Assembly (NCBI GenBank): GCA_964443135.1
Contig: CAYUBQ010000003.1
Location: 62,174-126,173, forward strand
Direction: 5' to 3'
Length of the DNA stretch: 64,000 nt
Source: an uncultured Desulfobacterales bacterium
Lineage (GTDB): Bacteria; Desulfobacterota; DSM-4660; Desulfatiglandales; HGW-15
Shown here: positions 11,973 through 61,660 of the stretch, piece by piece
How the letters are laid out: every line of letters begins with the position of its first letter
Position numbering within the stretch: position 1 is the first letter of the stretch
The notes under the pieces: generated by a model
What the model saw: the letters and a program-made list of their open reading frames with translations, nothing else
What the model was told of the DNA's origin: nothing
Database searches by the model: none
Made by a program: the position numbers and the translations under genes

Positions 11973-12136
11973 TCATGCGGGCCGTATTCGGCCGTCTACT
12001 GCCGTTTGCTCCAAGAGGTAGGGATCGAACCCATTCTCAGAGGAGGGGGTGATGGCGTATGGATGGGGGACGCCATCGAGAACGCACAGCCCGCCTCTGC
12101 CGTCCAACCGGGGTAGGGGCTCCCAGGAGGAAAGGC

Positions 12137-12652
12137 ATGCCTCAGCACTCCGTGTTCTCCGCCGCCCAGCTGATGGAGATGGCCGTCCGAATCGAGGAGC
12201 ACGGCCGGGCGTTCTACGAGGCCTGCCTGTCCGAGCCGATCGACGGGAAATCCAGGGAGCTCTTCCGGTACCTCCTGGACCAGGAGCGGGAGCACGCCCG
12301 CCTGTTCTCCCGCATGAAGGAGGAGGCGGACGGCGACGAACCCCTGCCGGAGAGCTACCCCGGGGAGCTCGAGAGCTACATGGAAGCGTTCACCGCCGGA
12401 GCGGTCTTCGACGATCCGGAGCGTGCCTCTCGGCGGGTCCGGGAGCTCCAAGGACCCCTCGGGATCCTGGAGGCTGCGCTCGATTTCGAGAAGAAGTCCA
12501 TCCTGTTCTACTCGGGCATGAAGACCCTGGTGAGGCGGTCCGACGTGGACCGGGTGGATCGGGTCATGGCGGAGGAGCACGACCACGTCCGCCGGCTGCT
12601 GGCCCTCCGCCGGGAGGTCGAAGCGTCGGGGAGAGGAGTGGAACCCTCATGA
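12137..12652 (+). CDS. Ferritin-like diiron (rubrerythrin-N-domain-like) protein
   Basis: Four ExxH/E motifs (IEEHGRAF, QEREHARLF, DFEKKSILFY, AEEHDHVRRL). AGGAGGAAAGG RBS. Its stop overlaps the next start (ATGA). Confidence 0.75.
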   Translation: MPQHSVFSAAQLMEMAVRIEEHGRAFYEACLSEPIDGKSRELFRYLLDQEREHARLFSRMKEEADGDEPLPESYPGELESYMEAFTAGAVFDDPERASRRVRELQGPLGILEAALDFEKKSILFYSGMKTLVRRSDVDRVDRVMAEEHDHVRRLLALRREVEASGRGVEPS

Positions 12653-13719
12653 TGCGCGCCCGGAGCCTGCCGTCCCATCGCGTGATCTCCTCCGCAGGGT
12701 TTCTCGATCTCACCTCGAGGATCATGGAAACCGGCCCGGTCATGGGACCCATGGAGCGGCCGGACCAGCCCGGATTTCACCTGTTCGACATCCTGCGCCG
12801 GCCCGAGGACCTCGTCCTTCGGTACACCACGACCACCATGCCTCCCAAAAAGGCCTTTTTCCCACCCACGGAAACGGTGTTTCGGTTCACCACCGGCGAT
12901 CCCCCCAATCTCGAGCCCGTCCGGGGCGACCCGCCCCGGGTCCTTCTGGGGGTGCATCCCTGCGACCTCTCGGCTGTCGACGCCCTGGATCGGGCGTACA
13001 GCTTCCCGCCCCCGGACCGAAGGTGGCTGCACAACCGCAGCCGGTCGGTCATCGTGGGGGTGGACTGCTTCCCGGACGAGTACTGCTTCTGCGACTCCCT
13101 GGGCGTGTCCCAGGCCCGGAGGCCGTGCGACCTTTTTCTGACGGAGATCGAACGCGGCTACCTGGTGGAGATTTACACCGAGGCGGGCGGGGAGCTGCTG
13201 GCCGATGCGGCAACCTCCGAGGCGCAGGGGCAGGACTTCCTCGAAGCGGAGGACCGGCGGAGACAGAAGAACCTGGGCTTCCGGGGGCGGCTGGAGGCGG
13301 ACCCGGACCGGCTGGCGGATTTCCTGGAGGCAGGGACTTTCCGGGAGATCTGGGAGGAGATCGCATCCCGGTGCTACAGCTGCGGGTCCTGCAACACCAC
13401 CTGCCCGGCCTGCTTCTGCTTCACCATGGACGACGTGTTCGACTGGGACCTCCAGAGCGGCGAGAGGCGCCGTGCGTGGGATGCCTGCCAGCTGCTGGAC
13501 TTCGCCGCCGTGGCCGGCGGCCACCGGTTCCGGGGGGAACGGTGGCAGCGGGTCCGTCACCGGTGGCACCGCAAGTTCCTCTACCTCCACCGAAGGTTCG
13601 GCCGCCCGTTCTGCACGGGCTGCGGGCGGTGCAGCAGGGCGTGCACGGCGGACATCAACATACTGGACGAGACCAATCGGATCATCGCAGCCGCCACGAA
13701 GGGAAGAGCTCATGGGTGA
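12649..13719 (+). CDS. hydB: Hydrogenase-associated Fe-S subunit (sulfhydrogenase beta / AsrA-like)
   Basis: Cys clusters CYSCGSCNTTCPACFC and CTGCGRCSRACTADI. Its position is first in a B-G-D-A gene order. Confidence 0.85.
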   Translation: MMRARSLPSHRVISSAGFLDLTSRIMETGPVMGPMERPDQPGFHLFDILRRPEDLVLRYTTTTMPPKKAFFPPTETVFRFTTGDPPNLEPVRGDPPRVLLGVHPCDLSAVDALDRAYSFPPPDRRWLHNRSRSVIVGVDCFPDEYCFCDSLGVSQARRPCDLFLTEIERGYLVEIYTEAGGELLADAATSEAQGQDFLEAEDRRRQKNLGFRGRLEADPDRLADFLEAGTFREIWEEIASRCYSCGSCNTTCPACFCFTMDDVFDWDLQSGERRRAWDACQLLDFAAVAGGHRFRGERWQRVRHRWHRKFLYLHRRFGRPFCTGCGRCSRACTADINILDETNRIIAAATKGRAHG

Positions 13720-14581
13720 GACGGGAAAACGGGGGGCGCCCACCGCCGACTGGACCTACCTGCCCGAGCCGGCCCGGATCGTTTCGATTCGACGGGAGGC
13801 GGTGGACGCCGTGATCGAGCTGGAGCGGGCCGATCGCCGCTCCCTTGGGCACAAGCCGGGTCAGTTCGTCCAGGTGTCCGTGTTCGGCTACGGGGAGATC
13901 CCCATCTCCATCTGCTCCTCGCCGACCCGCACCGACCGGTTCAAGCTCTGCGTCCGCCCGGTCGGACGCGTGAGCAACGCGCTGTACAACGCCCCGGAGG
14001 GCGGGTGGGTCGGTATCCGGGGGCCCTTCGGCCGGGGGTTTCCCATCCGAACCATGCGGAACCGGGACGTTCTGGCCGTGGCCGGCGGCTTCGGCCTGGC
14101 GCCCCTGCGATCCCTGATCCAGTACGTGCGGGACAACCGGGAGGCCTACGGGCGGCTCATCGTGGTGTACGGGGCCAGGAACCCCTCCCTGATCCTGTTC
14201 CGGAACGACGTCGAGACGTGGGGCCGGGAGGGGGATGTGGAGATGTTTCTCACCGTGGACGAGGCCGACGAGTCCTGGACCGGAAGGACCGGGGTGCTGA
14301 CGGAGCCCCTCGAGAAGGAGATCGAGCTCGCTCCCCGGTCGACCGTGGCCGCCGTGGTCGGTCCCCCGGTCATGTTCCGGTTCGTGGCCGCGGGGCTCCT
14401 GGCCAAGGGCATGAACCGGCGGCGGATCTTCTTCTCCCTGGAACGCCGGTTCGAGTGCGGGATCGGCAAGTGCGGCCACTGCCAGCTCAACGGGGTGTAC
14501 GTCTGCCAGGACGGGCCGGTGTTCCGCTACTCGGACCTGGCGGGGTTCAGCGAGGCGGTCGAGGCCCGGGCCCCGGAGTGA
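13712..14581 (+). CDS. hydG: Hydrogenase FAD/NAD(P)-binding subunit with C-terminal 2Fe-2S motif (sulfhydrogenase gamma / AsrB-like)
   Basis: FNR-like motifs (GQFVQVS, AGGFGLAPL) and a C-terminal CGIGKCGHCQ motif. Overlaps hydB by 8 nt. Confidence 0.88.
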   Translation: MGETGKRGAPTADWTYLPEPARIVSIRREAVDAVIELERADRRSLGHKPGQFVQVSVFGYGEIPISICSSPTRTDRFKLCVRPVGRVSNALYNAPEGGWVGIRGPFGRGFPIRTMRNRDVLAVAGGFGLAPLRSLIQYVRDNREAYGRLIVVYGARNPSLILFRNDVETWGREGDVEMFLTVDEADESWTGRTGVLTEPLEKEIELAPRSTVAAVVGPPVMFRFVAAGLLAKGMNRRRIFFSLERRFECGIGKCGHCQLNGVYVCQDGPVFRYSDLAGFSEAVEARAPE

Positions 14582-14658
14582 GAGACGGGAACCGTTGGAC
14601 GGCCGGCCGCGGGGGCTTACGGCGGTCTTCGGGAACGGAACGGTGGGAAGGGAGGACC

Positions 14659-15468
14659 ATGAAAGGAGACAAACCGCGAATCGCGTTCTTCGACTTCGCC
14701 TGCTGCGAGGGGTGCCAGCTGACCGTCCTCCAGCTGGAGGAGGCCCTGCTGGATCTGCTGGAGCACGTGGAGGTGGTCGCCTGGCGGGAGGCCATGAGCG
14801 GCGGATCGGACGACTACGACATCGCGTTCTGCGAGGGGAGCGTCTCCACCCGGAAGGACGAGGAGCGCATCCGGAGAATCCGGGAGACGGCGGAGACGGT
14901 GGTCGCCCTGGGGACCTGCGCGAGCATCGGCTGTCACAACGCGCTCAAGAACCGGTGGAGCGGGGAGGAGGTGCTGGAGCTGGTCTACGGGGAGGAGGCC
15001 GGTGGCTTCGAGACCCTGCCCGCCCGGCCCGTGGCCGGGGTGGTGCCGGTGGACTACCGGATCCTCGGCTGTCCCGCCAGCCTTCCCGAGATCGAGACCG
15101 TGTTCAAGCGGATCCTCACCGGCCAGCCCCATCCCCTTCCCAACGACCCGGTCTGCGTGGAGTGCAAGCGAAACGACCATCTGTGCGTTCTCGAGAAAGG
15201 CGTCATGTGCCTGGGACCGGTGACCCGCTGCGGCTGCGACGCGATCTGCACGGCCTACGGCGACGCGTGCCAGGGGTGCCGGGGCCTCGTGGACCAGGCC
15301 AACCTGGAGGCGGCGGTCCGGGTGCTCACCTCGGACCACCGCCACGCCATCATGGACGCCGTGGCCCGCCGGCTTCGGGCGGACCCGGAGCGGATCCGCA
15401 CCTGGTTCTCCCTGTACAACGGCCCGGACCTTCGGGTGGAACAGGAGACGACCGAGCATGGTTCGTGA
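14659..15468 (+). CDS. hydD: [NiFe]-hydrogenase small (delta) subunit
   Basis: N-terminal FDFACCEGCQ, a GTCASIGC motif and distal Cys clusters. 269 aa with no Tat signal, consistent with a cytoplasmic enzyme. Confidence 0.88.
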   Translation: MKGDKPRIAFFDFACCEGCQLTVLQLEEALLDLLEHVEVVAWREAMSGGSDDYDIAFCEGSVSTRKDEERIRRIRETAETVVALGTCASIGCHNALKNRWSGEEVLELVYGEEAGGFETLPARPVAGVVPVDYRILGCPASLPEIETVFKRILTGQPHPLPNDPVCVECKRNDHLCVLEKGVMCLGPVTRCGCDAICTAYGDACQGCRGLVDQANLEAAVRVLTSDHRHAIMDAVARRLRADPERIRTWFSLYNGPDLRVEQETTEHGS

Positions 15469-16774
15469 AGCGAACATCCACGTGCATCACCTGACCCGCG
15501 TGGAAGGCCACGGCGACATCACGGCCGTGATCCAGGGCGGCGAGCTGAAGGAGGTGCGGTTCTCGGTGGTGGAGGCCCCTCGCTTTTTCGAGGCCTTCCT
15601 GCGGGGTAGGTCCTACGACGAGGTGGCCCACCTGGCCTCCCGCATCTGCGGCATCTGCGCGGTGAGCCACCGGGCGGCCGCGCTGAAGGCCGTCGAGTCG
15701 GCGTTCGGCGTGCGGATCTCCGACCAGTCCGTGCTGTTGCGGCGGCTCGCCTTCCACGGGGAGGTCCTGAGCAGCCACGTCCTCCACCTCTACTTTCTCG
15801 CGGCCCCTGATTTCATGGGTGTCCCCAGCATCCTCCACCTGGCCGGCACCGACCGGGAGACGGTCCAGCGGGCCATGCGGCTGAAACGGATGGCCTACGA
15901 TCTCTGCAGGGAGGTGGTGGGCCGGCACACCCACCCGGTGGCCATGAACGCGGGTGGGTTCCCCTTTGTCCACGACGAGTCGGGGCTCCTGCGCATGAAG
16001 GAGCGGTTGGTCGAGGCGGTGGAGGACGTGCGGGAGACGGTGTCGCTCTTCCAGGGGCTGTCGCTTCCGTCCTTCGAACGGGAGACGGAGTCCGTGTCGT
16101 TGAAGCACCCGGCCGTCTACCCGTTTTACGAGGGCGACCTCTTCTCGAGCGAGAGCGGTTCCCTGGCCCCGGACTCCTACCGGGAGGCCGTGCGGGAGTA
16201 CGTCCAGCCGCACTCCACGGCCAAGTACGCCCGCTGGAACCGGCCCGAGTACATGGTCGGGGCCCTGTCCAGGGTGAACAACAACCGGGATCTGCTGGGC
16301 CCCCTCGCCCTGGAGGCGGCGGATCGGCTGGGCCTGGAGAGCCCCTGTCACAACCCCTTCATGAACAACGCCGCACAGGTCGTGGAGTGCGCCCACTGCC
16401 TGGAAGAGTCCGTGGTCATCATCGATCAGCTGCTCGAAACCGGGCTCCGTCCCGAGGACGAGGAGGCCGAGGTCCGGCCCTGCGCGGGCCGGGGGGTGGG
16501 CGCGGTGGAGGCCCCCCGGGGGACGCTGTTTCACGAGTACGCCTTCGACGGGGAGGGACGGTGCCTGGAGGCGAACCTGGTGATCCCCACCGCCCAGAAC
16601 CTGGGGAACATCGAGGCGGACCTGAAGGCGTACACGCCGGGACTGGTGGACCGGGAGGAATCGGCCATCGAGCAGGCTCTCGAAATCCTGGTCCGGGCCT
16701 ACGACCCGTGCATCTCCTGCTCGACCCACGTGATTCGACTGGATCGGGAGCCGTCAATCCCTTCAATCCCTTGA
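15458..16774 (+). CDS. hydA: [NiFe]-hydrogenase large (alpha) subunit, cytoplasmic group-3b-like
   Basis: N-terminal RICGICAVSH motif and C-terminal DPCISCSTH, followed by a 14-aa tail (VIRLDREPSIPSIP). Overlaps hydD by 11 nt. Confidence 0.93.
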   Translation: MVREANIHVHHLTRVEGHGDITAVIQGGELKEVRFSVVEAPRFFEAFLRGRSYDEVAHLASRICGICAVSHRAAALKAVESAFGVRISDQSVLLRRLAFHGEVLSSHVLHLYFLAAPDFMGVPSILHLAGTDRETVQRAMRLKRMAYDLCREVVGRHTHPVAMNAGGFPFVHDESGLLRMKERLVEAVEDVRETVSLFQGLSLPSFERETESVSLKHPAVYPFYEGDLFSSESGSLAPDSYREAVREYVQPHSTAKYARWNRPEYMVGALSRVNNNRDLLGPLALEAADRLGLESPCHNPFMNNAAQVVECAHCLEESVVIIDQLLETGLRPEDEEAEVRPCAGRGVGAVEAPRGTLFHEYAFDGEGRCLEANLVIPTAQNLGNIEADLKAYTPGLVDREESAIEQALEILVRAYDPCISCSTHVIRLDREPSIPSIP

Positions 16775-16798: not shown

Positions 16799-16984
16799 AT
16801 GAAGGAGAGCCAGGAAACCGGCGAGCCCGAGGAGAGAGACGCCCTCTGCCCGGAGTGCGGCCACGCGTTCAAGGCCTACGTGGATCGCATCGTCCCCGAC
16901 GGCAAGGAGAGCGAGATGCGGGAAAAGATCGACTGCCCGGTCTGCGGCTGTGGGGAGTGCAACGTGGTGCAGCCGGGGACCTAG
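16799..16984 (+). CDS. Small zinc-ribbon protein
   Basis: 61 aa with CPEC...CPVCGCGEC. A strong AAAGGAGG RBS is present, 24 nt after the hydA stop. Confidence 0.55.
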   Translation: MKESQETGEPEERDALCPECGHAFKAYVDRIVPDGKESEMREKIDCPVCGCGECNVVQPGT

Positions 16985-22193: not shown

Positions 22194-22889
22194 CTACCAG
22201 GGCATGGGCGTGCCGTCGTACTTGACGAACGTCCCCGTGTCCCGGTCCAGGCTGAACCCCTCGACGATGCGGCGCATGCCGCGGACGCTCTCCTCGGGCG
22301 TGATGCCGTGGCGGGGCCCCATGCGGGTGTTCACCCCGCCGGGGTGGAGCAGGAGCACGCCCACCCCGCGGGGCTTCAGCTTGACGGCGAGCCCCTGCAT
22401 GGCCGCGTTGAGCGCGGCCTTGCTGGAGCGGTAGTAGTAGCTCCCCGGGTCCCGAATGTCGGCGATGCTTCCCATGTGGCTGCTCACGGCCACGATGAGC
22501 CGCTTCCCGCTCCGGGCGATGTTCTCGAGGAGCCGCTCGGCCACCCGCACCGTACCCAGGGTGTTGACCTCCAGGGTGCGCAGCCAGTCGTGGTAGCAGA
22601 GGGAGCCGAACTCGGCGACGTTCTTCTCCAAATAGACCCCGGCGTTTCCCATGAGAATGTCCACGGGCTCCTCCTCCAACTCCCAGCAGAGCGCCCGGAT
22701 GTCCTCGGAGGCGGTGACGTCCAGGCGATGGACGCTGAGGCTGTGGTGCTTCTTCTCGAGCCCTCGAAGGGACCGTGCCTCCGCGGGGTGACGGCAGGTG
22801 GCGAACACCCGCCAGCCCTCTTCGGCGTACTGGCGGGCCCACTCGAGGCCCAGCCCCCGGTTGGCGCCTGTGACGAGCATGCTCGGCAT
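22194..22889 (-). CDS. Short-chain dehydrogenase/reductase (SDR)
   Basis: TGANRGLG cofactor motif and YRSSK catalytic motif. 231 aa. GGAGGGAG RBS. Confidence 0.88.
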   Translation of the reverse strand: MPSMLVTGANRGLGLEWARQYAEEGWRVFATCRHPAEARSLRGLEKKHHSLSVHRLDVTASEDIRALCWELEEEPVDILMGNAGVYLEKNVAEFGSLCYHDWLRTLEVNTLGTVRVAERLLENIARSGKRLIVAVSSHMGSIADIRDPGSYYYRSSKAALNAAMQGLAVKLKPRGVGVLLLHPGGVNTRMGPRHGITPEESVRGMRRIVEGFSLDRDTGTFVKYDGTPMPW

Positions 22890-22930: not shown

Positions 22931-23581
22931 TCAGGTTTTCAGCTTCTCGAGCGCCTCGAAGGTGTCGGCCGGCTCGGGACGCCGGGTGTGGTCCGGGTTG
23001 ATGCGGGCGTAGCGGATGATCCGGTCCCGGTCGACGATATACCTCGCGGGCATGGGCAGCCGCCAGGAGACGTCCCCGTTGTACTTCGCCAGGTCGATGC
23101 CCATGTCCAGATACACCTCCCGCAGGTCGTCCGGCACCGTGTAGACCAGCCCGTAGGCGTCGGCCGTCCGGTTCCCGGGGTCGCTCAGGAGCTCCATGGT
23201 GAAGCCTTTCTCCTCCTTGAATGCCCGGACGTGCTCCTCGGTCTGCGGGGAGATCATCACCAGGGACGCCCCGAGGTTGTCGAAGCGGAACCGGGCTTCC
23301 TCCAGAGCTTCCAGCTCCAGGTTGCAGAAGGGTCACCAGCGTCCCCGGTAGAAGCCCAGGACTACCGGCCTTCGGTCGAGGGCCGTGCGGAGGTTCACCG
23401 GGCGGCCTTCGGCGTTGTTCAGGGTGAAGTCCGGAGCCGTGTCCCCCTCGCCGAGGGCCCGGTCGGCCGCCCCGGACTCGAAGAGGGCCTTGACGGCCCG
23501 TCCCGTGACCTCCTGCTTCTCCTGCGGGGCGGACTCCTGGAACTCCTTCTTCTTGGCCTCGATCTTCTCCTGCAGGCTCAT
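22931..23581 (-). CDS. AhpC/TSA (redoxin)-family peroxiredoxin-like protein with in-frame TGA, probable selenocysteine (W-U-P-F-C)
   Basis: Two track ORFs share one frame and are separated only by TGA 23335..23333. The sequence around it is GFYRGRW-TGA-PFCNLELEAL. The start ATG overlaps the tkt stop (ATGA). Confidence 0.75.
23300..23320 (-). promoter_or_regulatory. Candidate bacterial SECIS hairpin
   Basis: The mRNA sequence CUGGAGCU-GGA-AGCUCUGG begins 11 nt 3' of the UGA, with GG in the apical loop. Confidence 0.45.
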
Positions 23582-25443
23582 ACGCTCTCCTCCGATCCCT
23601 CCTGGTCTCCGGGTCGTGCGACGATCGCCTTCACGGTCTCCACGATCGCCCCCCTGGAGATGTCCTGGTCGTCCAGCAGCTCCTCGGGCCGGCCGCTCCT
23701 GGGGGTCTTGCGGACCGCCAGGATGTGGAGCCTCGCGCCGGGGACGGCTGCGGCCACCGCCTCGCCCAGGCCGCCTTCGGCGTAGTGGTCCTCCACGGTC
23801 ACCAGGGCAGGGGTCTCCTCCGCGGCCCTCCGAAGGGTGTCGCGGTCCACGGGCTTGACGCTGTAGAGGTCGATGACCCGCACGGCGATCCCCTCCTCGG
23901 CGAGGAGATCCGCCGCGGCCAGGGACTCGTGCAGGGTGATCCCGGCGGCCGCTACGGTCGCGGCGTCGTTTCCGCTGCGGCGCAGGACCTTGCTCCCCCC
24001 CACGGGAAACGCCACGTCGGCCCCGTAGATGACCGGGGTCTTGCCCCTGGTGGTCCTGAGGTAGACGATTCCCTCCCAGCGTGCGGCCTCTTCCACCAGC
24101 CGCTCGGTGGCGACCGCGTCCGCCGGGTAGAGGACGGCGGCGCCGGGCAGGGTCCGGAACATGGCCAGATCCTCGAGTCCCATCTGGGACGGCCCGTCCT
24201 CCCCGATGGAGACCCCGGCGTGGGATCCCACGAAGACGATGTGCGCCTCGGAGTACCGGCTCATGCGGATCTGGTCGAAGGCGCGTGTGAAGAAGGCGGC
24301 GAAGGTGGAGACGAAGGGGACCTTGTGCCGGGAGGCCAGGCCGAGGGCCGCGCCCACCATGTTCTGCTCGGCCACGTACATCTCGAAGAACCGCTCGGGG
24401 TGACGATCCTTGAAGGCTGCGGACTTGGTGGAGTTGCTCACCTCCCCGTCGAGGCAGACCATGTCCGGGTAGCGGGGGTACAGGCGCACGAGGGCGTTGC
24501 CGTATGCGGTCCGCGTGGCCACCGGGGTCTCCTGCGCATAGCTCGGCTCCTCCGGGATCCCTCCTTTCAGGGCCTCCGGGGCCAGATCCTCGGGAGGGAG
24601 AAGCGCCCCCCGCACCGACACGTCGACGGGGCCCAGCTCCCCGAGTGCCCGGTCCAAATCCTCCTCCCCGAGGGCCTTGCCGTGCCATCCGTTTTGGTCC
24701 TCCACGAAGGAGACGCCTTTGCCCTTGACGGTCCTGGCGATGATCAGGGTGGGGCGCCCCAGGGTCCCGGCCGCCTTTCGGTACGCCTCCAGGATGTCCG
24801 GGAGGGAGTGGCCGTCCACGAGGACGGTCTCCCACCCGAAGGCGGAGATCCTGCGCTCGTAGGCCTCCAGGTCGTGGCCGTAGAGGGTCTCCCCCCGCTG
24901 CCCCAGCCGGTTCACGTCCAGGACGGCCGTCAGGTTGTCGAGCTCGTAGTGGGCGGCGATCTGGACCGCCTCCCACTGGGAGCCCTCGGCCATCTCGCTG
25001 TCCCCGAGGAGCACGAAGGTGCGGTAGGGGAGCCGGTCCAGGAAGCGGGCGTTCAGGGCGAGCCCCAGCCCCACGGAAAGCCCCTGGCCCAGGGAGCCCG
25101 TGGCCGCGTCCACGTAAGGGAAGCGGGGCGTGGGGTGCCCCTCCAGCGGGCTTCCGAACGACCGGTAGGTGAACAGCTCCTCCCGCCGCACCGCTCCGGC
25201 CGCGGCCCACAGGGCGTAGAGAAGGGGAGAGGCGTGGCCCTTGGAAAAGACCAGGCGGTCGTTGTTCGGGTGCTCGGGCCGGTCCACGTCGTAACGAAAG
25301 GTCCCCCCGAACAGGAGCCCGACCATGAGGTCCGCCGCGGAAAGGCTCGACGTGGGGTGACCGGAGCCGGCGCGGCTGGTGGCCACCAGGATGTCGTGGC
25401 GCACCAGCCGGGCGATCTCCGACAGATGGTCGATCGATCTCAT
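23578..25443 (-). CDS. tkt: Transketolase
   Basis: Contains the GSGHPTSSLS motif, the GDSEMAEG (GDG-type) TPP motif and the pyrimidine-binding and C-terminal domains. 621 aa. Confidence 0.93.
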   Translation of the reverse strand: MRSIDHLSEIARLVRHDILVATSRAGSGHPTSSLSAADLMVGLLFGGTFRYDVDRPEHPNNDRLVFSKGHASPLLYALWAAAGAVRREELFTYRSFGSPLEGHPTPRFPYVDAATGSLGQGLSVGLGLALNARFLDRLPYRTFVLLGDSEMAEGSQWEAVQIAAHYELDNLTAVLDVNRLGQRGETLYGHDLEAYERRISAFGWETVLVDGHSLPDILEAYRKAAGTLGRPTLIIARTVKGKGVSFVEDQNGWHGKALGEEDLDRALGELGPVDVSVRGALLPPEDLAPEALKGGIPEEPSYAQETPVATRTAYGNALVRLYPRYPDMVCLDGEVSNSTKSAAFKDRHPERFFEMYVAEQNMVGAALGLASRHKVPFVSTFAAFFTRAFDQIRMSRYSEAHIVFVGSHAGVSIGEDGPSQMGLEDLAMFRTLPGAAVLYPADAVATERLVEEAARWEGIVYLRTTRGKTPVIYGADVAFPVGGSKVLRRSGNDAATVAAAGITLHESLAAADLLAEEGIAVRVIDLYSVKPVDRDTLRRAAEETPALVTVEDHYAEGGLGEAVAAAVPGARLHILAVRKTPRSGRPEELLDDQDISRGAIVETVKAIVARPGDQEGSEESV

Positions 25444-26735
25444 GGCGCGCCTTCCCCGAGCCCCCTGGCGAGGGCCAGGGTCCGCTCCCCGAGCATGTGG
25501 GTGAACGAGCCCAGCTCGTTGTCGTACCAGCCGTACACCACCACCTGGTTCACCGGCGCCTCCACCGTGCACCCCTCCCCCTCAAACGAGCCTTCCGGGG
25601 AGATGCGGCAGCCGGGCGTGACCGAGACCCGCACCTTGCCGCGCTGGACGCGCGTCTCCCGCCCCTCGACCACGGCCGCGGCCGCGGTCCCGATGATGTC
25701 GGAGCTGACGTTCTGGGAGTCGGAGTAGGAGAGGTAAGGGCTCAGGTAGCCGTTGGCCGCGTTTCGGTACATCTCGTTGACGCCCTCGCGGGAGACCGGC
25801 CGCTCCGGGTCGTCCTGGAAATTCACCATCAGGATCACGATGGAGCCCGTGGTGTTGGGGACCCTCACGGCCTCGGCCACGAAGTCGATCTGCTCCATCT
25901 CGGGGATCACCAGGGCGGCGGCCTTGGCCGCGCCGGTACTGGTCAGGATGATGTTGTCCAGAACGGCCCGATTCTTCCGGAGATCGCTCTTCCCCGCCTT
26001 GGGGAGGCTGTCCAGCACCCCCTGGGTGGAGGTGGCCGCGTGGACGGTCACCATGGAAGCCCCCAGGACGGGCTTGATGCCGAAGCGGTCCAGGATCGTC
26101 TTCATCAGGAAGGCCAGACAGGTGGTCGTGCAGGAGGCCGTGGAGACGATGTCGTGCCGCGCCGGGTCGTAGGCCTCGTCGTTGATCCCCTGGATGGTGG
26201 TGACGGCGTCCTCGGGCATTCCCCCGGACTCGTCCTTGATCTTGAAGGGGGCCGAGAGCACCACCTTCCGGGCCCCCGCCTCCAGGTGCCCCCGCAGCGC
26301 ACCCTTGGGGGCGTCGGCCGGTACGGTGGGATCCCGGAAGACCCCGGTGCAGTCCACCACCAGGGAGACGCCCTGCCCGGACCAGTCGATCTCCCTGGGG
26401 TTCCGGTCCTTTCTGAGGACGGTCACCGGGGTGCCGTTGACCCGCATGGTCCCGGCCGACTCGTCCAGCTCCTCGATGACCGGTCCGCCCCGGAAGCCGT
26501 GGATGTAGCGGCCCAGGGGGCCGTAGGTGCTGTCGCGGGCCAGGTAGTCGGCGATGTCCTCGAGACCCTGTCCCGCCTCGCGGCCGATGTTCACCACGAT
26601 GCGCTCGAAAGAGCCCCGCGCCGCGTGATGCCAGAGCAGGAGCTTCCCGATCCGGCCCATGCCGTTGATTCCGAGAGGCATGGCAAGGGGGGGCTGGATT
26701 TGGGAGAACACGGGATGATCCTTGGCGTCGAGCAT
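25440..26735 (-). CDS. gap: Glyceraldehyde-3-phosphate dehydrogenase, divergent long form
   Basis: INGMGRIGK Rossmann motif, STASCTTTCL active-site Cys and WYDNELG near the C-terminus. 431 aa with insertions. AAGGAGG RBS. Confidence 0.88.
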   Translation of the reverse strand: MLDAKDHPVFSQIQPPLAMPLGINGMGRIGKLLLWHHAARGSFERIVVNIGREAGQGLEDIADYLARDSTYGPLGRYIHGFRGGPVIEELDESAGTMRVNGTPVTVLRKDRNPREIDWSGQGVSLVVDCTGVFRDPTVPADAPKGALRGHLEAGARKVVLSAPFKIKDESGGMPEDAVTTIQGINDEAYDPARHDIVSTASCTTTCLAFLMKTILDRFGIKPVLGASMVTVHAATSTQGVLDSLPKAGKSDLRKNRAVLDNIILTSTGAAKAAALVIPEMEQIDFVAEAVRVPNTTGSIVILMVNFQDDPERPVSREGVNEMYRNAANGYLSPYLSYSDSQNVSSDIIGTAAAAVVEGRETRVQRGKVRVSVTPGCRISPEGSFEGEGCTVEAPVNQVVVYGWYDNELGSFTHMLGERTLALARGLGEGAP

Positions 26736-27381: not shown

Positions 27382-27699
27382 TTACGATGGAAAGGGGTGC
27401 TCCGACTTGAACATAAAGATGTACGCTCCGTGGTTCACGTTCACCGTGAGGTTGCCCCCGTGGGACTTGGCATAGTTCACCCACCCCGGGTCGCCGCCCT
27501 CCTCCTCGCAGCTCTCCTCCGGCGAGGCCTTGCCGCTGCTCCGGTCGTACCAGGCCAAAAGCATGGGGTCGCTGTCGTATTTCCTCACCCTGTGGAGGGC
27601 GGCCTCGCGAGCGGTTTCGAAGTCCAGGTTCTTTTCGTCGATGTTCTCGAAGGTTTCCCCGGGAAAATCGACCTGCTCGACGGGCTTGCTGGTGGCCAT
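27382..27699 (-). CDS. Small conserved hypothetical protein (recalls the AF1514/DUF5619-type family, unverified)
   Basis: 105 aa, MATSKPVEQVDFPGETFENIDEKNLDFETAREAALHRVRKYDSDPMLLAWYD.... AAGGAGG RBS. Confidence 0.6.
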   Translation of the reverse strand: MATSKPVEQVDFPGETFENIDEKNLDFETAREAALHRVRKYDSDPMLLAWYDRSSGKASPEESCEEEGGDPGWVNYAKSHGGNLTVNVNHGAYIFMFKSEHPFPS

Positions 27700-27744
27700 G
27701 ACGGTGATCCTCCTTTTCGGTTTGCTCTCGGCCCGCCCCGGGCT

Positions 27745-28233
27745 CTACCTGGGCTGGCTGAAGATGTAGTCCTGGTTCTTCTTCACGCTGTGACACTCGA
27801 TGCAGCCGTCGACCTTGCCCTCGGCCATGATCTTTCCGTCCGGTCCGTACTTGGCCCAGAACCAGTCGCCCGCCTCGGGATTGTACCCTTCGACCTTGTA
27901 CATGGGGGTCACGGCGGCGAGCGTCTCGCGATCCTCGGCATAGTTCTCCTTCACCAGGATCGCCCGGTCCGGCAAGGGTTTTCCCTCCTTCGCGGCCCGC
28001 ACGGCGACGTCGTTGGCATAGAGCCTGAGGTAGGCCCCGTGGGGGCTTTTCCCCTCGTACATGCCCTCCCAGCCCGGGAACGGTTCCCAGTCCTTGTAGT
28101 CATGCGTCTCGGCGATGTAGCTCCAGAGCTCCTTCCCGTCGGGCGCCGGCATCTTGCCGTGCATGCCCGCCCAGGCGATCTGGATGGCAAGCATCGACGC
28201 CAGGGCTGCTCCCACCATCCAAAAACGTTTCAT
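27745..28233 (-). CDS. Cytochrome P460-family protein
   Basis: Signal peptide, a family-like core (DWEPFPGW, YANDVA, LVKENY, WFWAKY) and a single C-terminal haem motif CIECH. Confidence 0.8.
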   Translation of the reverse strand: MKRFWMVGAALASMLAIQIAWAGMHGKMPAPDGKELWSYIAETHDYKDWEPFPGWEGMYEGKSPHGAYLRLYANDVAVRAAKEGKPLPDRAILVKENYAEDRETLAAVTPMYKVEGYNPEAGDWFWAKYGPDGKIMAEGKVDGCIECHSVKKNQDYIFSQPR

Positions 28234-28289
28234 GTCGGTCTCCTTTCGTCTGTGATCGGTCCTTCGGTGCCGGTGAACCCGCCGGATCC

Positions 28290-28511
28290 TCAGCTCAGGC
28301 CGAAGCCCATGGACGCGTACTCGTCGATCTTTTCCTTGGCCTCCGGAAGGGTCTTCCCCAGAGACCAGGGCTCCATGAACCCGCCCATCATCAGCTTCCA
28401 GCCCTCGGCCTCGTCGTAGAAGATCTCCGCATCTTCCTTGCAGGAAACCCCGCACGACTCCCTTCCCACGGCGTTGACCAGGTGCTCCATGAGCTCGTTT
28501 TTCCCCTCCAT
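28290..28511 (-). CDS. Small hypothetical protein (73 aa)
   Basis: MEGKNELMEHLVNAVGRESCGVSCKEDAEIFYDEAEGWKLMMGG.... It starts 9 nt after the rubrerythrin stop. Confidence 0.45.
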   Translation of the reverse strand: MEGKNELMEHLVNAVGRESCGVSCKEDAEIFYDEAEGWKLMMGGFMEPWSLGKTLPEAKEKIDEYASMGFGLS

Positions 28512-28520
28512 GGCCCCCCC

Positions 28521-29015
28521 TCAGATCACCTTGTGGAACGCCTTGCGTACGGCACCGCAGACCTGGCAGTACTCGGGCGGTTCCCGCGTGACCACGTGAC
28601 CGCAGGCGTTGCAGACAAAGTACTCCTCCACGAGGAACTTATCCTGCTCCACGAGGGCCTTGCCCAGGAGCCGGTGATGGCCCTTTTCCACCTCCGATGC
28701 ATGGGAGAAGCTGATCTCCGGTCCCTCCTCGCCCTCCTCGCGGGCCTCGGAGATCATCCGGGGATACAGGCTTTCGAACTCCTTGGCCTCGCTCTCCACG
28801 GCGTCCTGGACGTTGTCCCACGTCCCCCGAATCTTCTTCAGGTAGCTCAGGTGGCGGCGGGCGTGAACGGCCTCGGAGGCCGCCAGCGCCATGAACAGCT
28901 TGTACACGCCGTCCTGGTAGTCGTCCGCAGCCTTCTGGGCATAGATCAGGTACTTCTGGTAGGCGCGGCTCTCGCCGGTGAACGCCTCTTCCAGGTTCTT
29001 TTCCGTCTTCGACAT
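28521..29015 (-). CDS. rbr: Rubrerythrin
   Basis: Diiron ExxH motifs (ESRAYQKY, SEAVHARRH, EVEKGHHRL) plus a C-terminal rubredoxin-like CNACG...CQVCG. Confidence 0.92.
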   Translation of the reverse strand: MSKTEKNLEEAFTGESRAYQKYLIYAQKAADDYQDGVYKLFMALAASEAVHARRHLSYLKKIRGTWDNVQDAVESEAKEFESLYPRMISEAREEGEEGPEISFSHASEVEKGHHRLLGKALVEQDKFLVEEYFVCNACGHVVTREPPEYCQVCGAVRKAFHKVI

Positions 29016-29267
29016 GGTTGCCCTCCTCGCTCGAGCGTTCGTCTTTCTTTTCTATCCTCCGAAAAGCGGCCTCGATCCACAATGGGGTTGAACCCCCATT
29101 CGCGAAGGTCCCCGTGTGTAGACGGGATGAGGGTCCGAAGAATCGATGAGGCAAAAGGGGTCGGGACCATATACAGGATGGCGTGTATTGATCTGGAGGA
29201 TTCCGGTTTGCGATCCTGATGAAACCGGGAAGGGTCCCGGTGCATTCCAGTAAAAAAGGAGGTTCAA

Positions 29268-56235: not shown

Positions 56236-56598
56236 TCAAGCACCCGCGGGCTCGGACGGGGGCAGGGGAGACATCGCATCCAGGATGGAGAGCCCGACGA
56301 GGGTGTGATTGCGAAATCGACCCTCGACGGCCGGTGAAACGTGCTGGATTTTCGCACGCAGGATCCTGGGTGGTTCCGGGCTGACCGGACCGTAGAACTT
56401 CATTTCGAGGGTCGAACCCACGTGCAGGAAATCCAGCACGGGAGAATCCATGCGGACCAGAAAGCACAGCCCCTGGGCCGACAGGTTCCACAGGTTGAAC
56501 TGGTAGACATAGTCGAGCTCGGGCAGGGAAAGCTCCACGCTGTGGAAATCCCCTCCGGGGACGCGTTGCTCGCTCCGCCTGTCTGTTGGATCGATCAT
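56236..56598 (-). CDS. PilZ-domain protein
   Basis: RRSEQR (RxxxR) and NLSAQG (D/NxSxxG) c-di-GMP-binding motifs. 120 aa. Confidence 0.8.
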   Translation of the reverse strand: MIDPTDRRSEQRVPGGDFHSVELSLPELDYVYQFNLWNLSAQGLCFLVRMDSPVLDFLHVGSTLEMKFYGPVSPEPPRILRAKIQHVSPAVEGRFRNHTLVGLSILDAMSPLPPSEPAGA

Positions 56599-57726: not shown

Positions 57727-59160
57727 TCACTCGTGAAACGGCCGGCCTGCGGCCTTTCCCGCGACCTCCAGCAGGATCTCGGCCAGTGTGGGGTGGGCGT
57801 GGATGGTGTCGGCCACGTCCTGGACCGTGCACTGCCGCCGTATGGCCAGGGCCGCCTCGGCCACGAGGTCGGTGGCGCCGGCCCCCACCAGGTGAACCCC
57901 GAGGATGCGCCCGGTCCTCTCTTCGAGGACCAGCTTCGCCTCGCCCGCGATCCTTCCCAGGACCTGGGCCTTCCCCGAGGTCCGAAAGAGAACCGATTCC
58001 GAGCGCACCCCCAGCCCGGCCTCCCTGGCCTCGTCCTCGGTCCGGCCCACCACGCCGATCTCGGGAGCCGTGAAGATGGCCCCGGGTACCACGTCGTACC
58101 GCATCGGCCGATCCATGCCCATTGCGTTCTCGGCGGCCAGCCTTCCCTCGGCCGTGGCCACGTGGGCGAGCATGATCCGGCCGGGACCCAACGCGTCGCC
58201 CACGGCGTAGACGCCCGCGGCGCCGGTGCCTAGGCGATCGTCCGCCGGAATCCATCCTGCGGGATCCGGCTCCAGCCCGAGGTTTTCCAGGCCCAGCCCG
58301 GACGTGTCGGGCCGGCGTCCCACGCACACCAGGACGCAGTCCGCCTCCACGATCTCCGCGGGGCGTTCCCGCTGTTCCGATCCTGCGAAAGGGGACCCCC
58401 CGATGCGCACGCCGCAGCGTCCCCCGCGCTCCTCCACGCCTTCCACCCCGGCGTCCGCCAGGACCCGGATCTTTCGCTTCTTCATCTCCCGGAGCAGGGT
58501 CTTGACGCAGTCCCGGTCCACGCCGGGGATGGGGAGCAGCCGGTCCATCGCCTCCACCAGGGTCACCTGCGAGCCGAGCCCGGAAAAGATGGAGGCGAAC
58601 TCACAGCCGATGACGCCGCCCCCGACGATCACCATGGCGTCGGGCACGGCCTCCAGGGAGAGGGCGTGATCGCTGGAGAGGACCGTGGTGCCGTTGAACG
58701 GGAGGTGGGGCAGGGGCGCGGGGACCGAGCCGGTGGCGAGGATCAGCCGGTCCCATTCGACCGTTTCCAGGCCGCCTGCGGCTGGGGTGACGGAGAGCCG
58801 GCCGGGGCCCTCGACGCGGCCCTGCCCCTGGAGGTGCCGGATCCCCCGCTGCTTGAACAGGCGGAGGAGGCCCTGAATCTGGCCCTGGATCACCCGCTCC
58901 TTTCGCCGCATGAGCGCCGCCATGTCCGGAGAGGCGCCCCCTTCGACCGCGACGCCGAACTCCCCGGCCCGGCGCACCTGCTCCAGGACGTCGGCGGCCG
59001 TCTTCATCACCTTGGAGGGGATGCAGCCCCAGTTCAGGCAGGTTCCCCCGACGTTTCCCCGTTCGACGAGGGTGACCTCGGCCCCGAGCTGCGAGGCCCG
59101 GACCGCCGCGGCGTATCCTCCGGGACCCGCCCCGACCACGGCGACTCTGGTCCCGGTCAT
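57727..59160 (-). CDS. lpd: Dihydrolipoyl dehydrogenase
   Basis: GAGPGGY, redox-active GGTCLNWGCIPSK, GGGVIGCE and a C-terminal HAHPT motif. Confidence 0.92.
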   Translation of the reverse strand: MTGTRVAVVGAGPGGYAAAVRASQLGAEVTLVERGNVGGTCLNWGCIPSKVMKTAADVLEQVRRAGEFGVAVEGGASPDMAALMRRKERVIQGQIQGLLRLFKQRGIRHLQGQGRVEGPGRLSVTPAAGGLETVEWDRLILATGSVPAPLPHLPFNGTTVLSSDHALSLEAVPDAMVIVGGGVIGCEFASIFSGLGSQVTLVEAMDRLLPIPGVDRDCVKTLLREMKKRKIRVLADAGVEGVEERGGRCGVRIGGSPFAGSEQRERPAEIVEADCVLVCVGRRPDTSGLGLENLGLEPDPAGWIPADDRLGTGAAGVYAVGDALGPGRIMLAHVATAEGRLAAENAMGMDRPMRYDVVPGAIFTAPEIGVVGRTEDEAREAGLGVRSESVLFRTSGKAQVLGRIAGEAKLVLEERTGRILGVHLVGAGATDLVAEAALAIRRQCTVQDVADTIHAHPTLAEILLEVAGKAAGRPFHE

Positions 59161-60425
59161 GTTCCGCTCCTCTCGGGTCCGGCGGGCCCGCTCTCCCTGG
59201 ACTCCCGGTACCGCGCGATGTCCGACTCGGTGATGCCGAGGCAGTAGAGAATGTTGATCATCTGGTCGCCGCTGAATATGCCGTCCGCGGGCGGGATGCT
59301 TTCGGACGGCTTGCAGGCGATGGAAAGGCCCACGTCCTTCATGAAGCGGGACCCGGCCGATCCCCCTCCCACCGCCACCACCTGGTCCCGGCTGATCTCC
59401 TCCACGTTCATGATGAACTCCAGGATCTCGTTCTTGGTGGCCGCGGTCAGCACCGGCTCCTCGAGGCTCCCGGTGGCGTTTCCCGCTTCGTCTTTCTGGA
59501 GGGTGTTGCAGAACGCGTAGTCCACGCCTTCGGCCTCGTAGATGCCCCTCAAAAAGCAGTCCAGCCCCGTGGAGAGGAGGGCCACCTTGTACCCCATGGA
59601 CTTGAGGATGCGGAGCAGCTCCAGGGCCCCCGGGTGGAGCTCCAGCGAGCGGCCCGCCGTCTCGAGCTCCTGCACCGGGACGCCCCGAAGGGCCTCGACC
59701 CGATCGACCAGGGACTGGGTCCAGCCGCCCGGATCCGCCTGGAGCGGCGGCGCGATCCGCTTTCCCGCCGGGGCGATGCGCTCGTTGACCGCATCCAGAA
59801 AGCGGCGGACGGAGGTCTCCTCGATCAGGCAGGACTCCACGTCGAACACCACGATCTTCTTGGCCTGCCGGTAGGCGCTTTCGCTCTGGATGACCACGCT
59901 CTGGTTCAGGCGGCTGCAGAGCTCCTTCAGCTGCTCCTTCATGCCCTCCAGGGCCCCGGCCCGGGAGGGAAAAGGCTCCCGGCGGACGTCCCGGACGTCG
60001 ACGGTCGTCTCCATGGAGAAAAAGGTGCCCCGCGCGATCATGCGGCAGCTCTCGATGTTCGCGTTGAACCGGTGGAGAAGAGACGAGATCCCGGCGATGA
60101 TCCCGGGCCGATCCATGCCGAGAACGGTCACCAGAAGGTGCTCGCCGGGCCCCTCGCCCCGGTCTTCGTCGCACGCCCGGAGGATCACCTTGAGGCCGGT
60201 CTCCTCCTCGATGCGTTTCAGCGACCCTCGAATCTCCTCGGGGTCCCGGCGAGAGCCGGTGAAGTCGATGACGAGGAAAATGGAAAAGAGACCCCTGCGG
60301 CAGTTCTCCTCCACGTCCAGGATGTTTCCGCCCAGCCCCAGGACCCGTCCGGTGATCTTGGAGACGAGCCCGGGCGAGTCCAGCCCGATGGCCGAAAGGC
60401 TCATGATCTGCTTGAGCTCGGACAT
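59157..60425 (-). CDS. serB: Phosphoserine-phosphatase-like HAD hydrolase with two N-terminal ACT domains (SerB2-type architecture)
   Basis: Two ACT-like repeats (GLDSPGLVSKITG, GMDRPGIIAGISS), then a HAD motif I (VVFDVES) and downstream HAD blocks. Its stop overlaps the lpd start (ATGA). Confidence 0.8.
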   Translation of the reverse strand: MSELKQIMSLSAIGLDSPGLVSKITGRVLGLGGNILDVEENCRRGLFSIFLVIDFTGSRRDPEEIRGSLKRIEEETGLKVILRACDEDRGEGPGEHLLVTVLGMDRPGIIAGISSLLHRFNANIESCRMIARGTFFSMETTVDVRDVRREPFPSRAGALEGMKEQLKELCSRLNQSVVIQSESAYRQAKKIVVFDVESCLIEETSVRRFLDAVNERIAPAGKRIAPPLQADPGGWTQSLVDRVEALRGVPVQELETAGRSLELHPGALELLRILKSMGYKVALLSTGLDCFLRGIYEAEGVDYAFCNTLQKDEAGNATGSLEEPVLTAATKNEILEFIMNVEEISRDQVVAVGGGSAGSRFMKDVGLSIACKPSESIPPADGIFSGDQMINILYCLGITESDIARYRESRESGPAGPERSGT

Positions 60426-60439
60426 TCCTCCCCTCCCTC

Positions 60440-61519: not shown

Positions 61520-61660
61520 CCGGTCACCCCCGCTGATGAAAACGGGTGTCGTAGGGCGGGGTTTTACACCCCGTCGTGCTTGTCGCAAGCCTTGCGGCGG
61601 CGTGTGAAATGCCGCCCTACGCCCGGACCACCGAGGGGCTTTTTCACGGTAAAGGGTGCT
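61520..61660 (+). repeat. REP-like dispersed repeat, family 2, copy B
   Basis: Aligns with 27191..27319. Contains the 10-bp inverted repeat CGTAGGGCGG (61550..61559) / CCGCCCTACG (61612..61621). Confidence 0.75.

Follow-up and report, generated by a model that had tools for sequence, protein, structure and literature searches.

The gene at 22931..23581 on the minus strand of the 64-kb window (the whole stretch of DNA analysed here) raises the question of whether the TGA that interrupts it ends translation or is read as selenocysteine (Sec). Two pieces in one frame, the tail of the 23333..25210 frame and 22931..23260, were present in the list of open reading frames, and the earlier note had regarded them as a single gene split at this TGA. 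Minus-strand translation from the ATG at 23581 to the stop at 22931 agreed with that view, yielding one 216-codon frame whose only interruption is the TGA at 23335..23333 (codon 83), located between VVLGFYRGRW and PFCNLELEALEEA. Written with codon 83 as U, the context of the site is F-Y-R-G-R-W-U-P-F-C. We assign a probability of about 0.9 to the reading that 22931..23581 is one functional gene, encoding a thioredoxin-fold, peroxiredoxin (Prx)-like selenoprotein of ~24 kDa in which the UGA is read as Sec. On comparative grounds, the in-frame TGA almost certainly encodes selenocysteine. The locus comprises the following features:

22931..23581, minus strand: predicted complete Prx-like selenoprotein gene, 216 codons including Sec83, with the stop TGA at 22933..22931
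23333..23335, minus strand: UGA codon 83, almost certainly read as selenocysteine, first position of U-P-F-C (homologue alignment)
23324..23326, minus strand: TGC codon 86, partner Cys of the UxxC motif (invariant in both homologue alignments)
23302..23320, minus strand: SECIS-type hairpin CUGGAGCU-GGA-AGCUCUGG (19 nt, 8 bp, GGA apical loop)
23587..23593, minus strand: GGAGGAG, Shine-Dalgarno-like, 5 nt upstream of the selenoprotein ATG (direct reading of the sequence)
23578..25572, minus strand: transketolase gene, upstream neighbour, 5' limit without an assigned start codon (Pfam Transketolase_N, Transket_pyr and Transketolase_C)
22194..22889, minus strand: short-chain dehydrogenase (SDR) gene, downstream neighbour (Pfam adh_short, E 7e-32)

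The ATG of the putative selenoprotein (23581..23579) and the TGA that ends the transketolase gene overlap as ATGA, and the SDR gene starts 42 nt past the selenoprotein stop. This transketolase, selenoprotein and SDR gene order was found only in the close relatives L001 and L128, and was rejected as a functional clue because it is confined to these two closest relatives. The G+C signature of coding sequence was seen both before and after the codon-83 TGA. Every other TGA of the window that is flanked by coding signal marks a boundary between two genes. Other candidates were discarded: the in-frame TGAs at 56236 and 42272 separate neighbouring genes that are unrelated, the TGA at 28523 is the rubrerythrin stop with another gene behind it, and the NiFe hydrogenase large subunit carries Cys, not Sec, in its motif (DPCISC).

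With Cys in place of U, the protein matched Pfam AhpC-TSA (PF00578; E 4.1e-29, 101.5 bits vs a cut-off of 26) and Redoxin (E 1.6e-18). The full-length homologues are single proteins of 216-225 aa, encoded by single genes rather than by two independent ones, and the nearest named relative in the homologue search comes from a Thermodesulfobacteriota metagenome-assembled genome (MAG). NCBI applies the name ‘peroxiredoxin-like family protein’ to the Cys-type homologues as well as to the L001 C-terminal fragment. The TGA had been placed at the first Cys of a W-C-P-x-C motif, and the alignment confirmed it: U aligns with the redox Cys, which in the Cys-type homologues is the invariant first Cys of W-C-P-[YF]-C and is never replaced by Trp. 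A contig search with the back-translated motif, with [W/C] at the Sec position, recovered Cys-type loci only, mostly from aerobic Proteobacteria.

Inspection of the active site qualified the peroxiredoxin-like label, which holds for the AhpC-TSA match and not for the catalytic motif. Cys86 aligns with the peroxidatic Cys of the BCP/PrxQ structures 2cx3 and 2ywn. When F-Y-R-G-R-W-U-P-F-C is compared with F-F-P-A-A-F-S-P-V-C of 2cx3, the Pro is replaced by Arg79 and the Ser/Thr by Sec83, and only the Cys is kept, so that the canonical Prx motif P-x-x-x-T/S-x-x-C was not found in the window protein in this alignment. The catalytic Arg of peroxiredoxins aligns with Pro178 in the 2ywn alignment, with the nearly invariant Arg180 two residues further on. 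Since Sec takes the place of the Prx Thr/Ser and Cys86 that of the peroxidatic Cys, the site is thioredoxin-like: U-P-F-C corresponds to UxxC, not to the TxxU of Sec-containing peroxiredoxins. Sec83 is thus, as far as the alignments indicate, the N-terminal residue of a thioredoxin-like CxxC on a Prx scaffold. In NCBIfam, the score for PrxU, the Sec-containing peroxiredoxin (NF040737), was 18.4 bits against a cut-off of 270, and even the best match, the SelL-related redox protein (NF040769), stayed at 51.4 bits against a cut-off of 120. In the predicted structure of the Cys homologue P0020 (pLDDT 95.6), helix 85-103 begins at the CxxC, and a ~45-residue N-terminal two-helix extension that belongs to the subfamily is seen. 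The nearest solved folds to this type of protein are BCP/PrxQ and ResA.

A TGA at exactly the same codon was found in five relatives (L001-L005) and in at least 120 further metagenome loci, a lower bound counted among the matches listed. These loci represent 97 distinct proteins, with a median pairwise identity of 54% and gene G+C contents of 41-69%, and nearly all complete copies contain 131-136 (about 133) open codons past the TGA. A scan for further in-frame TGAs in the Sec-type loci returned 687 candidates and was too noisy for use.

The hairpin that the earlier note had described downstream of the TGA, CUGGAGCU-GGA-AGCUCUGG, is present, with corrected limits: it occupies 23320..23302 (19 nt) instead of 23300..23320, and its first stem base is separated from the UGA by a 12-nt spacer (CCCUUCUGCAAC), not by 11 nt. 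The conserved core is GGAGCU-GGA-AGCUCU (23304..23318). According to the published bacterial SECIS (bSECIS) model, the apical loop has 3-9 nt with a G in its first two positions, the upper stem has 4-16 bp, the UGA-loop distance is 16-37 nt and the minimum free energy is -7.5 kcal/mol or lower (PMC13188914). The window hairpin falls within these four limits, with a 3-nt GGA loop, an 8-bp stem, an apical loop that begins 20 nt past the UGA and a folding energy of -8.0 kcal/mol. The position and loop type are therefore those of a bacterial SECIS, as had been proposed. Taken alone, the window hairpin stands out only marginally: a SECIS-type hairpin of the same quality arose in 6.4% of synonymous recodings drawn from the window's own codon usage (p = 0.064), and the 76-nt region showed no extra stability over dinucleotide shuffles (z = +1.0). 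Two of the hairpin codons are rare in the window, where 4.4% of Ala residues are encoded by GCT and 17.7% of Glu residues by GAA. Rfam gave no match in the whole window at gathering thresholds, and nothing SECIS-like in 23150..23450 at E <= 10.

Constraint at the nucleotide level was found across the family. In 109 distinct Sec-type genes, codon +6 after the TGA is GAG (109/109), codon +7 is CTG (107/108) and codon +9 is GCT (95/102); between codons -25 and +45, the entropy of synonymous codon choice is almost maximal and drops to 0-0.36 bits only at +6, +7 and +9, which together form the hairpin core. In 13 variant sequences, with an altered peptide or Ala codon, the hairpin is rebuilt in other registers, with G-G or G-U in every apical loop, and most of the variants tested reached p <= 0.03 under synonymous recoding. 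Compensatory change was also observed, from C-G to U-A in the stem between L131 and L168, and at positions 16 and 36 of the GCG class (C-G in three sequences, U-A in four). Hairpins compliant with the model at -5 kcal/mol or better occur in 98 of 106 Sec-type sequences, compared with 22 of 78 Cys-type sequences, where they lie at scattered positions. Cys-type genes with the identical peptide use varied codons and never GCT; L210, for example, encodes the same NLELEAL peptide with GCC, and its hairpin is lost.

In a fixed-register test of 62 sequences, 81% of cells were paired vs 36-54% for slid controls. Because the core pairs are invariant, covariation in this register did not exceed that of shuffles in these 62 sequences, and the case for a structure is carried by the constraint on synonymous sites and by the variants with shifted registers. 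Conservation across the family does not extend to the three outermost pairs of the window stem, two of which are paired in 53-58% of cases. To judge from these comparisons, the hairpin and TGA evidence lies far beyond chance, and the hairpin is evidently under selection as RNA, beyond the protein code.

Four other explanations were weighed. The gene and its SECIS could be intact in an organism that has lost Sec decoding, as a recently dead relic. Losses of the Sec trait and of selenoproteins are documented in Deltaproteobacteria and Clostridia (PMC1794560), and in the relative L206 the Sec codon position is occupied by TTA while the hairpin is still intact. The window copy, however, retains the TGA, the rare GCT and GAA hairpin codons and an undamaged frame. 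Compared with L128 (95% identical), synonymous and nonsynonymous codon differences number 16:9 and 26:9 in the two halves; being mostly synonymous, they point to ongoing selection, and purifying selection is indicated on both halves of the gene. We consider a relic very improbable.

An even smaller chance is given to the decoding of UGA as an amino acid other than Sec, either as Trp through an altered code, in line with the JGI translations, or as Cys or Trp through near-cognate read-through without SelB. The public proteins P0001-P0015 do carry W at the site, and no Sec machinery was seen within the window: selA, selB, selD and tRNA-Sec were not found there (ARAGORN detected no tRNA, and Pfam searches of 30 genes detected no SelA, SelB or SelD). 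ARAGORN likewise found no tRNA-Sec in the 207 collected locus sequences. Against a reassigned code, TGA ends 31 of the 41 strong gene calls in the window; as the usual stop, it speaks for a UGA that is not reassigned genome-wide. Homologues have an invariant redox Cys at this residue, never Trp, and the SECIS-type hairpin, which plain read-through would not need, is kept in TGA forms and absent from Cys forms.

That the TGA is a true stop, leaving a pseudogene or two small genes (82 aa and about 109-133 aa), is hardly credible. Gene callers give exactly such a split, and the missing Sec machinery in the 64-kb window would also fit; but the TGA recurs with an intact downstream frame in at least 120 contigs of diverse lineages, both halves show the signs of purifying selection described above, the Cys-type homologues are single proteins, and neither half on its own makes a complete thioredoxin fold. 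There is next to no chance of a sequencing or assembly error that turned TGC or TGT into TGA: one base would suffice, but the same TGA occurs in independent assemblies, including those of the 95%-identical L128 and the syntenic L001, and is accompanied by hairpin codons specific to TGA forms.

With the UGA taken as a Sec codon, a decoding and catalytic scheme can be proposed. The ribosome would reach the UGA at codon 83 while the downstream mRNA folds into the short hairpin, with its G-G apical loop 20 nt past the UGA. Acting as a bacterial SECIS, the hairpin would recruit SelB-GTP-Sec-tRNA(Sec), and Sec would be inserted instead of termination. This UGA-decoding scheme follows established SelB biology; we infer that decoding depends on SelB, that selenium is in fact inserted, and what the substrate is. 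The redox centre W-U-P-F-C would lie at the N-terminus of helix alpha-1, with Sec83 as the exposed nucleophile of a thioredoxin-type CxxC and Cys86 at the Prx peroxidatic-Cys position. Attack of the selenolate on a disulfide or hydroperoxide would lead to a selenenylsulfide with Cys86, which could then be reduced by a thioredoxin-type reductant. Such selenolate/selenenylsulfide chemistry is the most likely one for this protein. No biochemically characterised member of the subfamily was found in the literature.

Selenoproteins named ‘Prx-like protein’, ‘Prx-like 1’ or ‘Prx-like thiol:disulfide oxidoreductase’, with pfam00578 and a UxxC motif, have been described from the Sargasso Sea and GOS selenoproteomes and from deltaproteobacterial genomes (PMC1088965, PMC2398784, PMC1794560, PMC1976440), and were defined by UxxC rather than the TxxU of Sec-containing Prx (PMC1088965). 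As the earlier note had stated, then, the class is not new. A 2026 review lists the Prx-like UxxC class with the representative WP_010940744.1 (PMC13188914). The window protein shares with the class the PF00578 domain, the pairing of Sec and Cys forms with many more Cys homologues, the SECIS directly after the UGA, and the occurrence in anaerobic delta-type bacteria and sediment metagenomes. It differs in its subfamily's N-terminal extension and in a near-invariant mini-hairpin core, GAGCU-GGA-AGCUC. The protein is most likely a new member of the Prx-like UxxC selenoprotein class; among the best 120 homologue matches there was no protein named as WP_010940744.1. The same review gives a cd02970-type family with a UxxS motif only (PMC13188914). 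The name ‘peroxiredoxin-like family protein’ is shared with this family, but the window motif is U-P-[FY]-C, not UxxS.

Among solved structures, the BCP/PrxQ peroxiredoxins (2cx3, 2ywn, 3hjp and 5epf) are the closest folds (Foldseek E 1e-11 to 4e-13, TM to target 0.8-0.88) and the best PDB sequence matches, with Cys86 at the peroxidatic Cys. They differ by an identity of just 19-25%, by the absence of the helical hairpin that the window subfamily has at its N-terminus, and by the motif Pro and Thr/Ser found where the window protein has Arg79 and Sec83. ResA/TlpA-type thiol-disulfide oxidoreductases (1st9 and 4nmu), found among both sequence and fold matches, share the thioredoxin fold with W-C-x-x-C starting helix alpha-1. 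In contrast to these, the window protein has Sec for the first Cys and no evident membrane anchor or signal sequence, and it scores 35.7 bits against the NCBIfam ResA cut-off of 170. The hairpin resembles the E. coli fdhF-type SECIS and the bSECISearch consensus in lying inside the coding sequence right after the UGA and in its small apical loop with G, then G or U, in the first positions. It differs from the fdhF type in that the part conserved in the window family is only 5-6 bp with a 3-5 nt loop, a bulged U is not evident and there is no Rfam match.

It is doubtful that the 216-residue subfamily, with its two-helix extension, its W-U-P-[FY]-C-N-L-E-L-E-A-L motif and its NCBI name, is an uncatalogued Sec subfamily. 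If it were, it would be a Sec subfamily abundant in sediment metagenomes, with an unusually minimal SECIS that is near-invariant over gene G+C contents of 41-69%, which could reflect sequence-specific recognition by SelB or a Sec form that has spread horizontally more than once. The class has been known since 2004-2005; the locus adds to it a well-supported member for which the comparative SECIS data are clean, and opens no new question.

For annotation, the locus should be treated as one selenoprotein gene, not as fragments of 82 aa and 109-133 aa. The expectation that gene callers would mis-annotate it proved right, and the error is widespread among public records: the gene is split in NCBI MAG entries (L001 into 82 and 129 aa), and JGI and Logan translations give Trp at the TGA, so that protein databases have been seeded with false ‘WWPYC’ sequences. 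The gene would also imply Sec decoding by the source organism, which bears on its physiology. As a separate observation, the window encodes a NiFe hydrogenase, a multihaem cytochrome and a rubrerythrin, consistent with an anaerobe.

The comparative sequence evidence supports a mis-annotated predicted selenoprotein gene of a Prx-like class with a well-supported SECIS, laid out as follows:

23581..22931, minus strand: Prx-like selenoprotein gene, one frame of 216 sense codons and a stop
23335..23333, minus strand: internal TGA at codon 83, the sole internal stop in the frame
23320..23302, minus strand: SECIS-type hairpin CUGGAGCU-GGA-AGCUCUGG, read from the sequence

The codon context of the TGA in minus-strand translation is ...RRPVVLGFYRGRW-TGA-PFCNLELEALEEARFRF... 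The earlier note had described two ORF pieces in one frame, interrupted only by this TGA; both pieces are in the mechanical ORF list with a common frame, and translation of 23581..22931 bore out the single interruption. The TGA stop of the upstream transketolase gene overlaps the ATG of the selenoprotein gene (ATGA), with GGAGGAG located 5 nt 5' of the ATG, and a short-chain dehydrogenase gene begins 42 nt past the stop. This tkt-prx-SDR order was rejected as a functional clue, since it is common only to the two closest relatives.

TGA is the stop of 31 of the 41 confidently called window genes and is not a reassigned stop in the window. A six-frame window scan for TGAs with a coding signature on both sides yielded only the codon 83 TGA and the stop (28523..28521) of a rubrerythrin gene (28521-29051, minus strand). 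Directly after the latter, a coding region (MEGKNELMEHL..., about 27400-28520, minus strand), classed among the picked genes solely as an antisense shadow, follows in the rubrerythrin frame; this TGA was rejected as a second Sec site because the next gene begins behind it. Two other same-frame junctions were rejected as boundaries between unrelated genes.

When the TGA was read as Cys, the Pfam domains AhpC-TSA (E 4.1e-29) and Redoxin (E 1.6e-18) both spanned the junction. A search of 5.8 billion proteins returned 822 homologues, the full-length ones being single proteins of 216-225 residues with an invariant W-C-x-x-C exactly at the TGA site, in agreement with the proposed redox-Cys position. 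Two short matches are C-terminal fragments (123 and 129 aa); the in-frame TGA is present on their contigs too, with an 82-aa gene called just upstream. The closest relative among the matches listed is the metagenome contig locus L128, with a core 95% identical to the window; the ratio of synonymous to nonsynonymous codon differences between them is 16:9 upstream of the TGA and 26:9 downstream, so that both gene halves are translated and under purifying selection. Neither a sequencing error at the TGA nor a pseudogene or a pair of independent genes can account for these findings.

The TGA form is widespread. A degenerate DNA pattern encoding F-Y-R-G-[RK]-W-TGA-P-[YF]-C-N-L-E was run against metagenome contigs and matched at least 120 loci; nearly every copy uncut by a contig end has 131-136 open codons after the TGA (133 in the window copy). 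The TGA-form matches listed include 97 distinct proteins with a median pairwise identity of 54%, and their gene G+C ranges from 41% to 69%. In the protein homologue search the nearest named relative was a Thermodesulfobacteriota MAG.

Public pipelines mishandle this gene in two ways, by splitting it or by translating the TGA as Trp, as seen from split fragments and W-W-P-Y-C translations. The fragmentation anticipated by the earlier note was found in an NCBI MAG record, where the gene is split into 82 aa and 129 aa and the 129-aa piece is given CTG as its start codon. The best 'full-length' JGI and Logan matches read W-W-P-Y-C, their DNA having TGA at that W, and the table 11 translation of these loci differs from the database protein. 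Such calls seed databases with false 'W-W-P-Y-C' proteins. Mis-annotated copies include the proteins P0001-P0015 and the loci:

L001:2194-2844, the syntenic relative from the NCBI MAG record
L002:2075-2722
L004:475-1125
L005:869-1531

The hairpin reported in the earlier note is present, although its range of 23300..23320 was two bases too long and the spacer after the UGA measured 12 nt, not 11. Published constraints for bacterial SECIS elements are an apical loop of 3-9 nt on an upper stem of 4-16 bp, G within the first two positions of the loop, with G or U usually next, a UGA-to-loop distance of 16-37 nt, and an MFE <= -7.5 kcal/mol (2026 review, PMC13188914). In the window hairpin the loop is GGA, the stem has 8 bp, the loop lies 20 nt from the UGA and the MFE is -8.0 kcal/mol, in agreement with all four constraints; its position and loop type are as had been proposed. 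No Rfam model matches it. Taken alone, it is weak evidence for a SECIS: the stability of the 76-nt hairpin region did not exceed that of dinucleotide shuffles (z = +1.0), and 6.4% of synonymous recodings with window codon usage gave an equally good SECIS-type hairpin.

The comparative case for a conserved hairpin is strong. Among 109 distinct Sec-type genes (TGA at the position of codon 83), the use of synonymous codons for conserved residues is near saturation from -25 to +45 codons around the TGA, with three unsaturated codons, +6 GAG (109/109), +7 CTG (107/108) and +9 GCT (95/102). These form the core stem GAGCU/AGCUC, and the choices were not imposed by the degenerate search pattern. GCT accounts for 4.4% of Ala codons in the window, and the loop-closing GAA for 17.7% of Glu codons. 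Cys-type homologues (Cys at that codon) with the N-L-E-L-x-A-L peptide use many codons, but never GCT. When hairpins satisfying the published model at -5 kcal/mol or better were counted, they were found in 98/106 Sec-type sequences, with the distance from the UGA being 19-20 nt in nearly all cases, but in just 22/78 Cys-type sequences, at scattered positions and despite the higher G+C of the latter. In L210 (93-776), which with L209 is the closest Cys-type homologue, the NLELEAL peptide is identical, but the hairpin is destroyed because Ala is encoded by GCC (local folding weakened from -9.5 to -4.1 kcal/mol); in L209 (313-921) the peptide itself is altered to C-N-R-A-L-K-A-M. Both changes fit a relaxed RNA constraint once Cys replaces Sec. 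In a close homologue, L206 (P0011, ENA scaffold_75012), the Sec codon (852-854) is replaced by TTA (Leu), one base from TGA, with the hairpin CTGGAGCTGGAAGCTCTGG wholly intact beside it; this is either an error in sequencing or a Sec-type gene that was inactivated very recently.

In the main class (89 sequences, reader's fixed register), four core pairs are invariant, one further pair is 91% paired and the closing U-A or U-G pair 87%, while the two outermost pairs are only 53-58% paired. In 62 sequences, 81% of cells in the fixed register were paired, compared with 36-54% in slid controls, and covariation was no better than in shuffles. Classical covariation is thus absent in the fixed register, and the structural case comes instead from 13 variant sequences. 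In seven variants Ala is encoded by GCG, so that the main register is broken; these fold into the 7-bp stem YUGGAGC/GCUYCAR around the loop UGGANGC, the outer pair being C-G in three and U-A in four. Five variants encode E-L-R-S-L and form GAGCUGC-GGUCWUU-GCAGCUC, and a compensatory C-G to U-A change separates one of them, L168, from L131. Two further variants have yet other peptides and GUC or GGU loops. Under synonymous recoding, most tested variants each have a low probability of arising (p 0.00-0.03), and all hairpin versions carry G-G or G-U in the apical loop, in line with the published loop-G rule.

Among PDB sequences, BCP/PrxQ peroxiredoxins match best, and ResA-type thiol-disulfide oxidoreductases come next. 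In the 2cx3 alignment, F-Y-R-G-R-W-U-P-F-C pairs with F-F-P-A-A-F-S-P-V-C and Cys86 aligns with the peroxidatic Cys; compared with the Prx motif of BCP/PrxQ, Thr/Ser is replaced by Sec83 and Pro by Arg79. Pro178 lies opposite the catalytic Arg of Prx, and a nearly invariant Arg180 follows two residues on. The ResA motif is W-C-E-P-C, and by this motif and the W-C-x-x-C spacing Sec83 would match the first, nucleophilic Cys. In a confident model of the Cys homologue P0020 (pLDDT 95.6), helix 85-103 begins at the CxxC and the N-terminus is extended by two helices; of the solved folds, BCP/PrxQ and ResA are the closest (15-25% identity). Together, the active-site alignment and this model indicate a thioredoxin-like site on a peroxiredoxin scaffold. 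The selenolate of Sec83 would act as nucleophile and form a selenenylsulfide with Cys86, the putative substrate being either a disulfide or a hydroperoxide.

As the earlier note had stated, Prx-like selenoproteins are known. GOS data contain 225 selenoproteins of the 'Prx-like 1' family (pfam00578, UxxC) beside 2,740 Cys homologues (PMC2398784), and a 'Prx-like thiol:disulfide oxidoreductase' is described in Geobacter, Syntrophus, Desulfotalea and Olavius symbionts (PMC1794560; PMC1976440) and tabulated in the 2026 review (PMC13188914). The window gene has the defining features of the Prx-like UxxC class and by these features is a predicted member. It differs from the review's 'peroxiredoxin-like family protein (cd02970)', which is UxxS (PMC13188914), and its protein scores below the NCBIfam thresholds for PrxU (18 vs 270 bits) and SelL-related redox protein (51 vs 120 bits). 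No tRNA was found in the 64-kb window, no SelA, SelB or SelD among its 30 larger genes, and no tRNA-Sec on any of the relatives' loci retrieved. Deltaproteobacteria are reported to be the bacterial group richest in selenoproteins (PMC1794560), which is a prior only and not a test. The locus is of value mainly for annotation quality and for the clean comparison that it affords of a minimal SECIS within a conserved peptide.

Other window genes include a soluble NiFe hydrogenase-like operon (12053-16774, plus strand; NAD-binding/FeS, small and large subunits), followed by a 61-aa Cys-rich ORF (16799-16984). The large subunit was rejected as a selenoprotein, as it ends D-P-C-I-S-C-S-T-H and is thus of the Cys type, not NiFeSe. 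In a 928-codon stop-to-stop frame (57727-60513, minus strand), the domains of a pyridine nucleotide-disulphide oxidoreductase are confined to residues 456-916 and the codon-position G+C is atypical (0.81/0.57/0.68); the frame may include a long N-terminal extension or be an overlap artefact. An apparent GcvT-SHMT fusion (61659-63998, minus strand) runs past the window end in a single frame that is open throughout, in which a GcvT-type aminomethyltransferase, present by its C-terminal part (GCV_T, GCV_T_C), is joined through an Ala/Pro/Glu-rich linker to an SHMT-like domain.
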